The translations under genes and the position numbers were made by a program. From the sequence record OZ035756.1: a stretch of 64,000 nucleotides of DNA. One strand, given 5' to 3'. Origin of the DNA: Tequatrovirus LF73P3. The notes under the pieces were generated by a model. It was not told where the DNA came from, did not search any database, and worked only from the letters and a program-made list of their open reading frames with translations. Shown here piece by piece: positions 26,437 through 41,189 of the stretch. The first letter of the stretch is position 1. Each line of letters begins with the position of its first letter.

Positions 26437-27423
26437 TTATTTCAGAAGAGTAACCTCAGCGATTTCTTGCCAACCGTTTTTGTCGGTCATAATAAAGTCA
26501 GCAAGATAAAGAGCAGTACGCAGTGAAACATTGCGTAAACGATTAACATTAACTTTCATCCATGATAATGCTTTATAAGTTTCTTCATCAGAAAGACCGC
26601 GCTTTTGCATCATGTCAGTTGAAAGAATAACATCTTCAACCCTGACCATAATTTCTTCATTAGTGTGAACACCCAAATCCAAATAAACCGAGCGGGACAC
26701 TAATGCTTGTAAATGTGGAGCAAGTTTAGTACCACGGTCTAATTCGCGGTCAATGTCAACGTTTGTGATAAAAACAATCGTTCCTTTAAATTCAAACTCA
26801 CGGTCAATGCCTTTTTCTTCTAAGTAAGAAGATGCAGTGCTCCAGCAGACTTTACGGGTCTCTCCAGTGTCCAGAGCAGCTTTTAGAAGATTAAGAATGT
26901 CCATATCAGAGAAAACATCCACATCATCAATCAAAAGGACAGAATTCTCTTCACGATTATTCCAAAGCTGCTCATAAAGACCAATACCAGAGATTTTACC
27001 ATTAATGCTTTTATATTCAATGTATCCGTTATCATTTGCTTTATTTAAAGCTTTATCTAAAGAATACGTTTTACCAATACCTGCTGCGCCAGAGATAATT
27101 AATGAACGAATATTTCCATTAATAATACCATTCGTCATCATTCCCATAACATTAAATCTTTTATTAATGCGGGTTTTCATATCTTCATATGATTCTTTAA
27201 CTTCTTCAACTTTTACACCATCATATGAAATATCTGATTTGTAAACCCAAACACCGCGACGTTTACCGTCAATTTCAACAAAAACTTTACCATCTCCTTG
27301 TGCATCTACCGGAGCATTATCTGGGAACCATTCGCCTAAGAGCTCAAAAGTTCCAGAGATTTCTTTACCGAAGTAGATACCCTTATTGATAGTTACAGTT
27401 TTCATTTTATTCTCCAATTTCAC
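26437..27423 (-). CDS. P-loop NTPase (328 aa)
   Basis: Walker A GAAGIGKT and Walker B-like VLLIDDVD. Confidence 0.55.
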   Translation of the reverse strand: MKLENKMKTVTINKGIYFGKEISGTFELLGEWFPDNAPVDAQGDGKVFVEIDGKRRGVWVYKSDISYDGVKVEEVKESYEDMKTRINKRFNVMGMMTNGIINGNIRSLIISGAAGIGKTYSLDKALNKANDNGYIEYKSINGKISGIGLYEQLWNNREENSVLLIDDVDVFSDMDILNLLKAALDTGETRKVCWSTASSYLEEKGIDREFEFKGTIVFITNVDIDRELDRGTKLAPHLQALVSRSVYLDLGVHTNEEIMVRVEDVILSTDMMQKRGLSDEETYKALSWMKVNVNRLRNVSLRTALYLADFIMTDKNGWQEIAEVTLLK

Positions 27424-27440
27424 ATTTGTTTTGATAGGGT

Positions 27441-27473
27441 AATAGTATCACACTACTACCCTACTGTAAACAA
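27441..27473 (-). promoter_or_regulatory. T4-type early promoter
   Basis: Minus strand GTTTAC-18 nt-TACTAT. Confidence 0.55.
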
Positions 27474-27474
27474 T

Positions 27475-27738
27475 TTATTTTAATGTTTGCCAAATTTTTA
27501 CTGCTTCGCGACGAGATACTTCTACAGCTCCAAGTTCTACGGCTTTTTGGCGTCGGCGAGCATGTAAGTCATAATGTTTAATGCGTTTATCTTGAAACCA
27601 AGAACGTTTCATTCCTATTGCTTCTGCCATTTTATGAAGCTCTTCAATATCTCCATCAGTGAACATATGACAATTTTTAGTTGGATGACCGCGAAGTTTC
27701 CATCCATGATTCATTAAAACATCTACGTAAACTGTCAT
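27475..27738 (-). CDS. Small conserved phage protein (87 aa), DUF4031-like by recollection
   Basis: MTVYVDVLMNHGW...HMFTD...ELH.MA.AIG pattern; family assignment from memory only. Confidence 0.35.
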   Translation of the reverse strand: MTVYVDVLMNHGWKLRGHPTKNCHMFTDGDIEELHKMAEAIGMKRSWFQDKRIKHYDLHARRRQKAVELGAVEVSRREAVKIWQTLK

Positions 27739-27929
27739 TGATTCTGCTCCAAATATGTTTCTATAATTTTCTGAGCGAGATAAACTGCGTTATCTTCAGT
27801 TGCATCTTCTAAGAAATTTTCAAAATAAGCTGAAATTTCTTCTGTGTCAATCAACTTTTTTACTTCAATTAACGTAGTTTTCATTTTATTCCCCCAAATC
27901 CGTATCAGTTGATAGTTGTATAGTACCAC
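27735..27929 (-). CDS. Hypothetical acidic protein (64 aa)
   Basis: ORF immediately downstream of early promoter at ~27930. Confidence 0.4.
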   Translation of the reverse strand: MVLYNYQLIRIWGNKMKTTLIEVKKLIDTEEISAYFENFLEDATEDNAVYLAQKIIETYLEQNQ

Positions 27930-27951
27930 AGTATGCTTTGGTTGTAAACCG
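27919..27951 (-). promoter_or_regulatory. T4-type early promoter
   Basis: Minus strand GTTTAC-18 nt-TACTAT. Confidence 0.6.
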
Positions 27952-27970
27952 TTTTGTGAAAAAAATTTTG

Positions 27971-27996
27971 AAATAAAAAAGGGGACCTTAGAGGTC
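27971..27996 (-). terminator. Intrinsic terminator
   Basis: Minus strand GGGGACC-UCUAA-GGUCCCC followed by UUUUUU. Confidence 0.7.
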
Positions 27997-28009
27997 CCCT
28001 TGCGTTAGT

Positions 28010-28495
28010 TTATACCATTTCTATTATGTGCATATTCTTTTTGCTGTCAAAATATATGCTTTTAACTGTTAACTCAGAATTAATTGGCAGTAAAAACTCT
28101 CTTTCATAATCTACCATACAAAGATTATCATAAAGTTTGTTAAGCTTATCATCATCAGTTTGACCAGATTCTTCAATTGCGATTAAATTTTCTAAAATGT
28201 CAATCATGGCAGTCGAATAGTCAAAAACGTTTGCATTTTTTAACACTACTAAAACATTAGTCATATAGCGTTCTGCAGCAAACGTTTCAGCTATATGAGA
28301 CTCACTGCTAAAGGAAGTTATTCTTTTAAATTTGATTCTCCTATTAACTTCAAACTTATAAGATAGCACTTCCTCTATTGTAAGTCCTCTAAAAAGTATG
28401 TCTTTAATCTCAAGTTTGTCTTTAATGTAATCATTAACACGCTTATGATTAAAATCATTAATTTTGTTGCCAAGGCATTGCATTAAAATATGCAT
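28010..28495 (-). CDS. Candidate mini ADP-ribosyltransferase (R-S-E type), 161 aa
   Basis: Motif triad in ART-like spacing: LFRG (R36), YSTA (S94-T95), EREFLLP (E131/E133); single-gene unit between promoter and terminator. Confidence 0.4.
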   Translation of the reverse strand: MHILMQCLGNKINDFNHKRVNDYIKDKLEIKDILFRGLTIEEVLSYKFEVNRRIKFKRITSFSSESHIAETFAAERYMTNVLVVLKNANVFDYSTAMIDILENLIAIEESGQTDDDKLNKLYDNLCMVDYEREFLLPINSELTVKSIYFDSKKNMHIIEMV

Positions 28496-28539
28496 TGTAT
28501 TTTCCTCAATTTTTAAAGAACAATTAACTAACTTACAAA

Positions 28540-28574
28540 TATATTATAATATGCTTTGCGGTAGAAGTAAACAA
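28540..28574 (-). promoter_or_regulatory. T4-type early promoter driving the ART-like gene
   Basis: Minus strand GTTTAC-17 nt-TTATAAT. Confidence 0.6.
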
Positions 28575-28600
28575 CTTTGTGAAAAAATTTTGAAATAAAA

Positions 28601-28620
28601 AGGGAGCCCGAAGGCTCCCT
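28601..28620 (-). terminator. Intrinsic terminator
   Basis: Minus strand AGGGAGCC-UUCG-GGCUCCCU followed by UUUUAUUUC. Confidence 0.7.
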
Positions 28621-28621
28621 A

Positions 28622-29635
28622 TCATTTATAATAACTTCGATGGTTTTCAAGATAAACCCTCTCAAGGAAGTCATCCCAGAAACCCATGTCTACTTTTTGC
28701 TGCATACCGTTCTTAGAAGCTTCAATGGATGCTGCTTCTACTTGATCGACCACATCTTCCAAAAACTCTTGAACAGTTTTAAATGGATGTTTACCCAACT
28801 TCACGTCGAGAATAAATGGAGCGTCTTGAAGTGGATAGACTAAGTCACCAGTTTTGTAAATTTCCAATAGTTGGAGTCCACCACGGCAAGCATGACTCAG
28901 AGCTTTCCAGTCAATGCCCTCATTCGCTTCAGCCTTACGAGCACGTTCGCCGTATTCAGCATCAAGTTTATTCAAAGATTGCTTAAGCTCGATAAGAGAA
29001 AGCGTTGTCTGATATTTACGACCCAACACAGTGTAGAACGTTTGTGGACCTGTTTTCTCATGATTATGGAACACCCATTCACAGAATTCGTTCTCTGGAA
29101 GACGATGCTTAATATCTTCAATCTTAGTTCGACGTTGCTTAATGGAACCGTCTTCTTGATAATCAACCCACTGATCAGGGATTTGATTAACTACTTTCAA
29201 TACATCACGTAATGCGGCCAAACGAGAACCCTTAACACCGTATTTAGAAGCTTGCTTGCGAACATATCCTAAGTAGGATTTCATGTTAGTCGTATAAAAA
29301 CGAGAACGATTGTCTTGAATAAACTTCCATACATCAGGCAAATCAGATTTAACTACCAGTTCAGGTGGAGTGTGGAGCATATCCAATGCTACAGTTTCAC
29401 CATCTGCTGCTAATTTAAAGAAATACTTAAGACTGTATAGTTCATGGTCAATATCATCTTTAGTGTTTTTAGATGATGTGTTGTTAGTGTTTTTACTCAT
29501 ATGCTCTTTAACATTTCCGATAAGAATATCACGAGCAGGAGGAACAAAGATTTCTTTAAAATCTACATCAGATTCTGGAGTAGAAGTTCCATAAAGATGA
29601 CTACCAAAATAGCTTTTCATTACTGTTTTCATCAT
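28622..29635 (-). CDS. Minimal nucleotidyltransferase (MNT/ANT-type) with C-terminal helical domain, 337 aa
   Basis: N-terminal signature GSHLYGTSTPESDVDF (GS-x3-G-x5-SD-V-D) plus downstream acidic LDMLH. Confidence 0.6.
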   Translation of the reverse strand: MMKTVMKSYFGSHLYGTSTPESDVDFKEIFVPPARDILIGNVKEHMSKNTNNTSSKNTKDDIDHELYSLKYFFKLAADGETVALDMLHTPPELVVKSDLPDVWKFIQDNRSRFYTTNMKSYLGYVRKQASKYGVKGSRLAALRDVLKVVNQIPDQWVDYQEDGSIKQRRTKIEDIKHRLPENEFCEWVFHNHEKTGPQTFYTVLGRKYQTTLSLIELKQSLNKLDAEYGERARKAEANEGIDWKALSHACRGGLQLLEIYKTGDLVYPLQDAPFILDVKLGKHPFKTVQEFLEDVVDQVEAASIEASKNGMQQKVDMGFWDDFLERVYLENHRSYYK

Positions 29636-33748: not shown

Positions 33749-33934
33749 TTAAAGCGTATTCACATAAGCTATTAATTCGTTTTCTTTCTTATCAAACCGA
33801 TCAGCAAATTCTTCTTGTTGATCGGGAGATAGCGGGCCGTATTCATCATAAAAGGTGTTTGCTTCTGTATGCTCATCTAGAAGTTCATGGATAAGCTCAA
33901 ACAATTTATCTTTTTGTTCTTTACTCAGACTCAT
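33749..33934 (-). CDS. Hypothetical acidic protein (61 aa)
   Basis: ORF. Confidence 0.35.
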   Translation of the reverse strand: MSLSKEQKDKLFELIHELLDEHTEANTFYDEYGPLSPDQQEEFADRFDKKENELIAYVNTL

Positions 33935-34100
33935 ATATTAATTTCCAGGAGTTTTAAAATAATTCGCTTTTGCTTAAATATTTCCATAGTTAAATGACCA
34001 GTATCTTTTTGACCGATTCCAATGGCAAAACCTTTATTGACAGCGAGTTCAATTAAATTATCAAGCTCACGTAACACTTCATATTGTAACTCAAAACTAT

Positions 34101-34328
34101 TCATTTCGGTTTACCTTCTTTAACGAAATCGGGATAAGGATAAAATCCTGAATAAAATCCTTCACCTTTATGATTGATGCATCCTTTATTAGAACAATAG
34201 CACCAATAATCGAAATCACAAGCCATTTCATCATTACATAAAGCAAAAACAACTGGCCATTCACACTTTTCGCAGTGGGCATTTTTAAGAATACTTGTTT
34301 GGCTCATAACCATGTAACCTTTAAACAA
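34101..34328 (-). CDS. Cys-rich small protein (75 aa)
   Basis: Multiple Cys pairs (CEKCEW...CNDEMACDFDYWCYCSNKGC). Confidence 0.4.
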   Translation of the reverse strand: MFKGYMVMSQTSILKNAHCEKCEWPVVFALCNDEMACDFDYWCYCSNKGCINHKGEGFYSGFYPYPDFVKEGKPK

Positions 34329-34516
34329 TATTCTTCTACGTGTTGTTTACGACCTTTCTTATCAATAAAGGTATATTCAACGAATGTTCCAATATAGTCT
34401 TTATCTACACCATGTGGACTATTAATTGGGCATTTAGTACGGCAAATGCGTTCCCATTGACGAATAATTTCCACTTTGTTTTTAGGATCAAACGGATGCG
34501 GGTAATGTACTTTCAT
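34304..34516 (-). CDS. Hypothetical protein (70 aa)
   Basis: ORF. Confidence 0.35.
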   Translation of the reverse strand: MKVHYPHPFDPKNKVEIIRQWERICRTKCPINSPHGVDKDYIGTFVEYTFIDKKGRKQHVEEYCLKVTWL

Positions 34517-34967
34517 AATCCACCACTATTAAATCAATATCAGGAGTAAACATGTCGATTAATTTAGAAACCTTATCCCAATCGCCGCCAGCAATACCGC
34601 AACCTATACGTGGAATGTAAATTACTGGTTTAAACAAAAGGGTTTCTGCCTGTAGATTTAATTCTATCATGCAGTTTACTAAAGCACCATAATCAAGATT
34701 AGGACCCGGTTCGTATTGTGTATACAGGTTATAGCATATACCAAATCCCGTAGGACTATGTTTAAAAACAATAGACATATCGCCTAATTTATCACGAGAA
34801 CCGTACTCGGTAGTGGTTTTATCTATTTCTAAAATTTTGGGATAGGCTCTTGCTAATTGACCCGCTACGCCAGAGCCCATTGTGTGGAAGCAATTGCACC
34901 CGTGCGCAATAATATTACCTTGAAGAAATAGGGCGACAATATCGCCCTTGATATATTTTACAATCAT
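34488..34967 (-). CDS. Macro-domain protein (candidate ADP-ribose binding/hydrolase), 159 aa
   Basis: Macro-domain-like motifs GNIIAHGCNCFHTMGSGVAGQLA and IPRIGCGIAGGDWD. Confidence 0.5.
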   Translation of the reverse strand: MIVKYIKGDIVALFLQGNIIAHGCNCFHTMGSGVAGQLARAYPKILEIDKTTTEYGSRDKLGDMSIVFKHSPTGFGICYNLYTQYEPGPNLDYGALVNCMIELNLQAETLLFKPVIYIPRIGCGIAGGDWDKVSKLIDMFTPDIDLIVVDYESTLPASV

Positions 34968-35311
34968 CTAGTACTCAATCCTCGATTATAAGAATCTACT
35001 AAACGGTCAACCATTGAATGACAAGCGGCTTTATCTTTCTCCTCCGCAACTGAACATTCTAAGGTATTCCACTTTTTAGCATATCGTTTTAACAATGTAT
35101 CATTTTTGTATCTGCTTGATTTATCTCTTTCTCCGTCTTTATATGCATATATTAATTTCTGCGCAAATTCAGCTTGGCATGCTTTATTTTTCCCACAATA
35201 ATCCGCGGCAGTACGGTTTACATACTCTCTAATTTCAGTATATGATGTATCTGCTAACGCAGAAGCAGAAAATGAAATTAATCCTATACATAAAACCAAA
35301 ATTTTAGTCAT
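34964..35311 (-). CDS. vs: Secreted protein (115 aa) in the position of T4 vs
   Basis: Signal peptide MTKILVLCIGLISFSASALA; size and synteny as T4 vs. Confidence 0.55.
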   Translation of the reverse strand: MTKILVLCIGLISFSASALADTSYTEIREYVNRTAADYCGKNKACQAEFAQKLIYAYKDGERDKSSRYKNDTLLKRYAKKWNTLECSVAEEKDKAACHSMVDRLVDSYNRGLSTR

Positions 35312-36344: not shown

Positions 36345-36376
36345 AATTATACCACAGTCAAGAGGAAAAGTAAACA
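36345..36376 (-). promoter_or_regulatory. T4-type early promoter upstream of regB
   Basis: Minus strand TTGTTTAC-18 nt-TATAAT. Confidence 0.65.
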
Positions 36377-40733: not shown

Positions 40734-41189
40734 TTAAAAGAGGTTGTTCATTATTCGGTAAAGTGAAGGACCCATCACATATTGCCACTGAGTACGAGGA
40801 ATAAGAGCAAAAGCATCCATCTCTGGAATCATAACGCCATCTTTATTTTCAAAATAAGACTCGCAGCGGCAATTTCTAAACATCTCATGCTCTACTGGAA
40901 CCGTATAATAAAATAACTGTAAGTCTTTATTACTAGAATATTTAAATACACCTAGGTCTTCTAGAAGGTCTGGATTATAATTGCTAAAGCCAGTCTCTTC
41001 TAAGCATTCTCTTCGTGCTGCGTCTAGTGCGCTTAAATCAGAATTTTCTATACGGCCCTTTGGAATATCCCAGCGATGTGCCATCATTCCAGGTTTACGA
41101 GAACCGGTAACTCGTCCCATAAATAAATCTTTATCTTCTGTCATAAAGATAATACCAGCTGATAATGTTTTCATTTTAATTTCCTGCAT
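40734..41189 (-). CDS. nudE: Nudix hydrolase NudE
   Basis: Nudix box GRIENSDLSALDAARRECLEETGF (GX5EX7REUXEEXGU). Confidence 0.85.
   Translation of the reverse strand: MQEIKMKTLSAGIIFMTEDKDLFMGRVTGSRKPGMMAHRWDIPKGRIENSDLSALDAARRECLEETGFSNYNPDLLEDLGVFKYSSNKDLQLFYYTVPVEHEMFRNCRCESYFENKDGVMIPEMDAFALIPRTQWQYVMGPSLYRIMNNLF

Follow-up and report, generated by a model that had tools for sequence, protein, structure and literature searches.

The tk.4 gene and its surroundings

We analysed a 64,000-nucleotide stretch of DNA from Tequatrovirus LF73P3 (sequence record OZ035756.1; hereafter the window) for the identity and likely role of one gene, a 159-amino-acid, ATG-initiated open reading frame (ORF) at 34488..34967 on the minus strand, taken from the ORF listing of the window. 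This ORF is tk.4 of T4-like phages, an orthologue of adfM, and encodes a 17.5-kDa stand-alone macrodomain. An earlier note on the same DNA had placed a macrodomain gene in the interval between tk and vs and quoted two loop strings, which are residues 17-39 and 118-131 of the ORF translation. The placement holds, as the gene lies between vs and tk.3; what the note did not give was the name tk.4, under which the gene is already annotated in T4 RefSeq.

Many Escherichia and Shigella Tequatrovirus genomes match the 3.5 kb or so around tk.4 at 98.6-99.2% identity. In an annotated relative, Shigella phage vB_SsoM_113, the genes run in the order tk, tk.2, two small ORFs, tk.3, tk.4, vs, vs.1, regB, and in T4, tk.4 (155 amino acids) occupies the matching locus between vs and tk.3. 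In T4 RefSeq, the tk.4 product is called “phosphatase” and annotated as “contains A1pp phosphatase motif”; the macro/A1pp nature of the gene has therefore been in the annotation for years. The features of the gene and its immediate surroundings are:

34488..34967, minus strand: tk.4 (adfM orthologue) coding sequence, 159 amino acids (ORF, synteny with Shigella phage vB_SsoM_113 and T4, Pfam Macro, AlphaFold2 model, fold matches)
34488..34516, minus strand: 29-nucleotide overlap between the 3' end of tk.4 and the start of tk.3 (the T4 counterpart overlap is 4 nucleotides)
34964..34967, minus strand: ATGA overlap of the vs stop and the tk.4 start (ORF coordinates; sequence ACTAGATGATTGT)
34964..35311, minus strand: vs, the gene to which tk.4 is probably coupled through the ATGA overlap
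36346..36374, minus strand: sigma-70-like promoter match ahead of regB, TTTACT-17-TATAAT with an upstream TG (consensus scan)

The ATGA overlap suggests that tk.4 is probably translationally coupled to vs. At its other end, the window allele has four additional C-terminal residues relative to the T4 allele. Tentatively, the promoter match is a candidate early promoter of a regB-vs.1-vs-tk.4 transcription unit. A promoter and terminator scan of the region gave no more sites than shuffled sequence did, and so we infer, rather than observe, early timing. Separately, according to the HIDEN-SEQ preprint, no T4 gene is depleted more strongly than vs in minimal M9-glucose medium (10.1101/2025.11.20.689424).

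Macrodomain fold and class

The Tk.4 protein matches Pfam Macro (PF01661) with 32 bits against a gathering cut-off of 22 (E=1.3e-7), over profile positions 2-117 of 118. An AlphaFold2 model built from a 54-sequence alignment has a mean predicted local distance difference test score (pLDDT) of 94.3 and a predicted template modelling score (pTM) of 0.89, and it has the three-layer alpha/beta/alpha macro fold. The macrodomain call of the earlier note is thus confirmed. Against solved structures, the 54-sequence family profile matches BT1257 (E=5e-20), TARG1 (6e-17) and SCO6735 (1e-15), followed by Poa1p (8.5e-15), Mycobacterium tuberculosis DarG (7e-12) and Thermus aquaticus DarG (2e-10), while the top Foldseek match of the model is human TARG1/OARD1 (E=4e-10; template modelling score at most 0.84, target-normalised). 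Based on the Pfam match, the profile matches and the model, we place Tk.4 in the ALC1-like/TARG1-like macrodomain class, which includes TARG1, DarG, SCO6735, BT1257 and Poa1p. Its nearest structural and sequence neighbours are in this class, rather than in the MacroD, viral X-domain or PARG classes, and it does not reach the NCBIfam NF001661 cut-off for the MacroD/YmdB deacetylase (“RNase III inhibitor”). The database labels “phosphatase” and “RNase III inhibitor/O-acetyl-ADP-ribose deacetylase” were traced to homology transfer alone.

A glutamine-type active site

At E<=1e-10, the Tk.4 family has 9,513 cluster representatives; the members listed are mostly stand-alone proteins of about 155 amino acids. 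Residue conservation was counted over 258 homologues and 50%-cluster representatives. At the catalytic site, Q84 is present in 258/258, N25 in 257/258, G23 in 255/258 and H22 in 250/258. The earlier note had held that its reading would fail if the two Gly-rich loops were lost in homologues; they are retained, with G33 and A35 in all 258, G122 in 257 and G124 in 256, so that each of the three glycines is found in at least 256. The sites lie as follows:

34890..34904, minus strand: H22-G23-C24-N25-C26, catalytic loop 1 (translation; hhalign to SCO6735)
34860..34877, minus strand: G31-S-G33-V-A35-G36, first Gly-rich ADP-ribose-binding loop (translation; G33 and A35 invariant in the family)
34716..34730, minus strand: N80-L-Y82-T83-Q84 motif, with Q84 at the position of the catalytic Lys (profile-to-PDB, MAFFT and hhalign alignments)
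34578..34613, minus strand: P119-RIGCGIAGGD-W130, phosphate-binding loop (alignments to TARG1 and SCO6735; translation)

In the profile-to-PDB alignment, Q84 of Tk.4 stands opposite TARG1 K84 and A126 opposite TARG1 D125, and BT1257 also has Gln at the former position. Gln fills the catalytic column of the MAFFT alignment in Tk.4, T4 Tk.4, all homologues and BT1257, whereas TARG1 and PhiKZ gp104 have Lys there. The position of Q84 is that of DarG K80, TARG1 K84 and SCO6735 Q85. Alignment of the family to SCO6735 by hhalign (probability 98.7%, E=3e-16) pairs H22 with H24, G23 with V25, N25 with N27, Q84 with Q85, and G122/G124 with G126/G128; N25 is also equivalent to N23 of PhiKZ gp104. The SCO6735 sequence was obtained via a BT1257 query. 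A query with the C-terminal 100 residues of Tk.4 alone matched SCO6735 in the phosphate loop and missed the Gln region. The Gln/Lys column came out 2-3 residues off, in a stretch of low confidence, in pairwise HMMER alignment to BT1257 and in hhalign/hmmalign alignment to PhiKZ gp104; its place was fixed by the 54-sequence profile against TARG1 and BT1257, by MAFFT and by hhalign to SCO6735.

Because Gln84 is shared with SCO6735 and BT1257, and in light of the SCO6735 biochemistry described below, Tk.4 would, from its sequence, be best described as a phage SCO6735/BT1257-type (Gln-type) hydrolase. The earlier note had also offered a “reader” of ADP-ribose as an option. This is unlikely, since Tk.4 has every residue needed for hydrolysis in the nearest enzyme that has been characterised, and these residues are invariant.

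Comparison with characterised macrodomains

SCO6735 (PDB 5E3B) and Bacteroides BT1257 (2AFC/2FG1) are Gln-type ALC1-like hydrolases with about 26% identity to Tk.4. Without the Lys found in DarG and TARG1, SCO6735 relies on Gln85, which Asn27 positions; it frees DNA of thymidine-linked ADP-ribose with higher efficiency than either DarG or TARG1, and it rescues E. coli and S. coelicolor from DarT (PMC9411070). Among its mutants, Q85A is inactive, N27S almost inactive and G128E reduced in activity, while Lys89 is important for activity on DNA and a basic mobile loop has been proposed to clamp the DNA (PMC9411070). The SCO6735 phosphate loop reads PRIGCGLAGGTW, with G126 and G128 at the places of G122 and G124 of Tk.4. 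At the catalytic loop, Tk.4 G23 takes the place of SCO6735 Val25; the backbone carbonyl of that valine sets the position of the proposed catalytic water. Tk.4 is phage-encoded and acidic (isoelectric point (pI) about 5.0), whereas BT1257 has a pI of 8.4.

TARG1/OARD1 (PDB 4J5R/4J5S) aligns with Tk.4 end to end by profile (E=6e-17) and also removes thymine- and uracil-linked ADP-ribose. Its catalytic dyad K84/D125 is replaced by Q84/A126 in Tk.4, and therefore the Schiff-base mechanism of TARG1 cannot apply. The uracil activity raises the question of whether Tk.4 additionally, or mainly, strips ADP-ribose from RNA bases such as uracil, countering a hypothetical RNA-targeting ADP-ribosyltransferase (ART) defence. 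SCO6735, TARG1 and DarG all hydrolyse uracil-linked ADP-ribose on single-stranded RNA, SCO6735 and TARG1 better than DarG (PMC13036486), and the active site of Tk.4 is of the SCO6735 type. However, no bacterial defence that ADP-ribosylates uracil in RNA is known, CmdT modifies adenine in a reaction described as irreversible, and the DarTG2 phenotype set out below already explains the retention of tk.4; we regard an RNA substrate of this kind as quite unlikely.

DarG of DarTG2 (PDB 5M31/5M3E/5M3I/7OMU) has the catalytic Lys80 where Tk.4 has Gln84, and the sequence relation of Tk.4 to DarG is weaker than that to BT1257, TARG1 and SCO6735. Membership in DarG itself was considered and rejected: Tk.4 scores 27.7 bits against the NCBIfam NF048014 equivalog (cut-off 250) and 27.5 bits against the PADLOC DarG model, with the match limited to profile positions 2-142 of 338. 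It has neither the C-terminal DarT-binding domain nor the catalytic Lys, and its neighbours are vs and tk.3, with no adjacent darT. Tk.4 is not a captured DarG, and the likening of Tk.4 to M. tuberculosis DarG in the HIDEN-SEQ preprint holds for the fold but no further. P0094, the one bacterial homologue examined, stands alone among housekeeping genes, with no ART neighbour.

PhiKZ gp104, independently named AdfM, strips single-stranded DNA of DarT2-made ADP-ribose in vitro and gives full rescue from DarT2 toxicity; its N23A mutant loses activity, the catalytic Asn being needed for full activity (PMC13309987, Cell Rep 2026). Like Tk.4, it is a phage-encoded, stand-alone, anti-DarTG2 macrodomain of about 160 amino acids that keeps the catalytic Asn (N23/N25). 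Compared as the translation of the published construct (PMC13309987), it is about 21% identical to the Tk.4 family (hhalign E=2.7e-9). It differs in having a DarG-type FPTK lysine where Tk.4 has YTQ (by MAFFT; the hidden Markov model alignment is shifted by two residues) and in being imported into the phage nucleus. T-even AdfM and chimallivirus PhiKZ AdfM appear to be independent recruitments from different branches of one macrodomain class to the same task. The name AdfM is thus used in two unrelated publications for proteins that are about 21% identical and carry Gln versus Lys, a nomenclature trap for annotation pipelines. We had also considered the acidic pI of Tk.4 as an objection to DNA binding; it was dropped because active PhiKZ AdfM is equally acidic (pI 5.05 vs 5.03).

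Probable anti-DarTG2 function

T4 lacking both adfA and adfN (gene 30.3, which encodes a DarTG1-specific NADAR enzyme) retains DarTG2 resistance (PMC11825919), which implies a further anti-DarTG2 factor. The HIDEN-SEQ preprint (November 2025) found just one gene of a T4 transposon library to be significantly depleted on a DarTG2-expressing host, and this was tk.4 (bioRxiv 10.1101/2025.11.20.689424). Knocking tk.4 out cleanly rendered T4 sensitive to DarTG2, and the authors called the gene adfM (anti-DarT factor Macrodomain); on a defence-free host, tk.4 was dispensable (10.1101/2025.11.20.689424). The finding is therefore already known, as a named gene with a published function for the T4 orthologue. 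The suggestion in the earlier note of an eraser of host defensive ADP-ribosylation, together with its idea of a test against a DarT-type toxin, agrees well with these T4 results (10.1101/2025.11.20.689424).

T4 Tk.4/AdfM and the window protein share the same vs-tk.3 locus and the same ATGA coupling, and they align end to end without gaps (155 vs 159 amino acids). Every residue that is invariant in the family is common to both: H22, G23, N25, C26, G33, A35, N80, Y82, Q84, G122, G124 and W130. Altogether, we read tk.4 of the window as an anti-DarT2 macrodomain ADP-ribosylglycohydrolase with SCO6735-like chemistry, counter-defence being its most likely job, and we give this reading a probability of about 0.75. 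We infer that the window allele, 58% identical to that of T4, confers the same DarTG2 phenotype and that it neutralises DarT2 damage enzymatically.

The proposed sequence of events would begin with early expression of tk.4 within the tightly packed regB-vs.1-vs-tk.4-tk.3 string, by translation coupled to vs and from the promoter ahead of regB, a step for which the evidence is weak. From the literature, infection-activated DarT2 attaches ADP-ribose to thymidine within TNTC motifs of single-stranded phage DNA, thereby blocking replication. Tk.4 would bind the ADP-ribose in the cleft between its GSGVAG and PRIGCGIAGGDW loops, and Gln84, held by Asn25, would position the distal ribose at the place where DarG and TARG1 use their catalytic lysine. 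Hydrolysis of the ribose-thymine N-glycosidic bond would then release ADP-ribose and leave intact thymine, restoring replicable DNA. More speculatively, the freed ADP-ribose might be degraded by the phage Nudix enzyme NudE, which is encoded in the window:

40734..41189, minus strand: nudE, 5.8 kb downstream of tk.4 (Pfam NUDIX, E=7.6e-14)

Several points weigh against this reading. The enzymatic activity of Tk.4 is deduced from sequence and from the SCO6735 analogy, and the preprint, which proposes enzymatic ADP-ribose removal by Tk.4, says that it “seems likely” (10.1101/2025.11.20.689424). The T4 allele that was tested against DarTG2 is 58% identical to the window allele, and 21-39% in residues 49-76 and 132-155. 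The loop after Q84 carries a five-residue deletion relative to SCO6735: Tk.4 has YEP-GPNLDY after the Gln where SCO6735 has HGMKTGSKGAPVRY, and with no Lys in the Tk.4 segment, both Lys89 and a second Lys are absent. The extended basic “mobile loop” of SCO6735-type enzymes is accordingly not found in Tk.4. The case for early expression of tk.4 comes solely from a consensus promoter match. SCO6735 also inhibits DarT without catalysis (PMC9411070), a point taken up with the allele data below. Finally, the N-terminal half of Tk.4 is similar to yeast Poa1p, an ADP-ribose-1''-phosphate phosphatase.

This last similarity touches on a reading in which Tk.4 acts mainly on a small ADP-ribose metabolite. 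The candidates are ADP-ribose-1''-phosphate, the substrate of Poa1p, and O-acetyl-ADP-ribose, that of YmdB/MacroD; the database labels “phosphatase”, “A1pp motif” and “RNase III inhibitor” carry this implication. We consider a metabolite substrate very unlikely. Like the three other rivals weighed in this text, it fits the invariant catalytic residues and the one known phenotype less well than the enzymatic anti-DarT2 reading does.

Two divergent alleles at a mosaic locus

A Tk.4 homologue is detectable in 2,789 of 50,697 phage records. The window allele (>=90% identity) is found in about 312 phage records, while the T4/T2 type is about 58% identical to it. Between the window and T4, the Tk.4 proteins share 58% identity over 155 amino acids without gaps (E=1e-70), compared with 98-100% for rI.1, tk, vs, vs.1, regB and vs.6 and 91% for tk.3. 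By residues, Tk.4 identity to T4 is 83% at 1-48, 39% at 49-76 and 21% at 132-155. At the nucleotide level, sliding-window identity to T4 is 98-100% across vs and the first ~40 nucleotides of tk.4, falls to 33-78% over the remainder of tk.4, and returns to >90% inside tk.3. Judged by this profile, the tk.4 locus is a cassette-like allele swap between near-identical neighbours. One further element lies at its edge:

34930..34948, minus strand: GC-rich hairpin (AGGGCGAtatTGTCGCCCT) with a T-rich tail, in tk.4 codons 7-13 (terminator-like match, fold, identical in T4)

Because identity to T4 collapses just 3' of the hairpin, the hairpin marks the 5' recombination boundary of the divergent tk.4 cassette. 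A second possible role is attenuation of transcripts beyond vs; over the wider 86-nucleotide hairpin region, the fold has a z-score of only -1.8.

The allele pattern bears on whether Tk.4 neutralises DarT2 mainly without catalysis, by binding the toxin or the ADP-ribosylated DNA (“interaction-inhibition”), in which case the allele divergence would reflect co-evolution with DarT2. A divergent cassette (58% at the amino acid level) amid 98-100% neighbours is what is typically seen for proteins in contact with a partner that varies, and the catalytically dead mutants SCO6735 Q85A, DarG K80A and TARG1 K84A still inhibit DarT in vitro, SCO6735 most strongly (PMC9411070). Yet Tk.4 lacks the C-terminal DarT-binding domain of DarG, and PhiKZ AdfM requires its catalytic Asn for full activity (PMC13309987). 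The catalytic-site residues are, moreover, invariant in the 258 homologues, including stand-alone bacterial ones without a nearby DarT, which argues for selection on enzymatic activity. Non-catalytic neutralisation is therefore unlikely to be the main mode, and enzymatic removal of DarT2-made ADP-ribose remains our preferred reading.

A separate matter is whether the tk.4 allele classes, the 155-amino-acid T4 type and the 159-amino-acid window type, are functionally non-equivalent, either through adaptation to DarT2 variants by toxin contact or through another substrate range (uracil-linked RNA ADP-ribose, protein Asp/Glu esters). We find this doubtful, though it deserves mention: if true, T-even phages would carry a polymorphic Gln-type “universal” base-ADP-ribose eraser with an origin independent of the Lys-type AdfM of nucleus-forming phages.

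In the wider context of phage defence, the T-even phages have stacked countermeasures to DarTG, namely AdfA, AdfN (a NADAR enzyme directed at DarTG1) and Tk.4/AdfM (a macrodomain directed at DarTG2). Identification of the ORF as adfM predicts resistance of the phage to DarTG2-bearing hosts, which helps in predicting host range and in designing phage therapy. What the present analysis adds is modest: the T-even AdfM family has an SCO6735-type glutamine site, rather than the DarG lysine, and adfM occurs as at least two deeply divergent alleles within otherwise near-identical genomes.

The small genes on the tk side of the locus are mosaic too (33749..34328, minus strand). The tk.2 product shares only 54% identity with T4 tk.2, and in place of T4 tk.1 the window has two small ORFs at 33931..34104 and 34101..34328 (minus strand). 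The product of the latter is Cys-rich (CEKCEW...CNDEMACDFDYWCYCSNKGCINH), with a zinc-binding look.

The mini-ART and its accessory block

The window also encodes a small ART, which the earlier note had mentioned alongside the macrodomain:

28010..28495, minus strand: mini-ART, 161 amino acids, Alt/ModB-like, with an R-S-ExE-like pattern (LFRG...SFSS...YEREF) (PHROG 832)

The mini-ART matches PHROG 832, “RNA polymerase ADP-ribosylase”, with E=5.8e-24 and is ~30% identical to ModB of other T4-like phages; searches gave no Pfam match and no significant solved-structure match. Its presence ~6 kb from tk.4, together with the ability of SCO6735 and TARG1 to de-modify proteins as well (PMC9411070), would suit a Tk.4 that reverses or tunes the ADP-ribosylation written by the phage's own enzymes (Alt, ModA, ModB, the mini-ART) on host proteins or RNA. 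Co-occurrence of the two genes speaks otherwise. At >=90% identity, the mini-ART is found in 43 phage records, T2 and HY01 among them, versus 2,789 with a tk.4-type macrodomain. T4 has tk.4 but not this mini-ART, with mobD in its place, while in T2 the mini-ART is paired with the other tk.4 allele. The tuning role put forward in the earlier note thus finds no backing in the records, and a writer-eraser pair of mini-ART and tk.4 was rejected because the two distributions are unrelated.

The chemistry points the same way. The T4 ARTs are arginine-specific, and TARG1-class macrodomains, which target Asp/Glu esters and thymine/uracil, are not known to act on Arg-ADP-ribose. Substrates tested for the TARG1 class include Asp/Glu esters as well as thymine and uracil (PMC9411070, PMC13036486). 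In addition, tk.4 is not needed on a defence-free host (10.1101/2025.11.20.689424). Reversal of phage-written marks is, in our view, the least likely of the four rivals.

The mini-ART sits in an accessory block at 26437..29635 (minus strand), which also encodes a 328-amino-acid AAA/STAND-like NTPase (PHROG 1250, function unknown), an 87-amino-acid DUF4031 protein and a 337-amino-acid RlaP-family “RNA repair pathway” nucleotidyltransferase (PHROG 388). This block may be an RNA-repair or anti-defence island that stands in place of the T4 mobD region.
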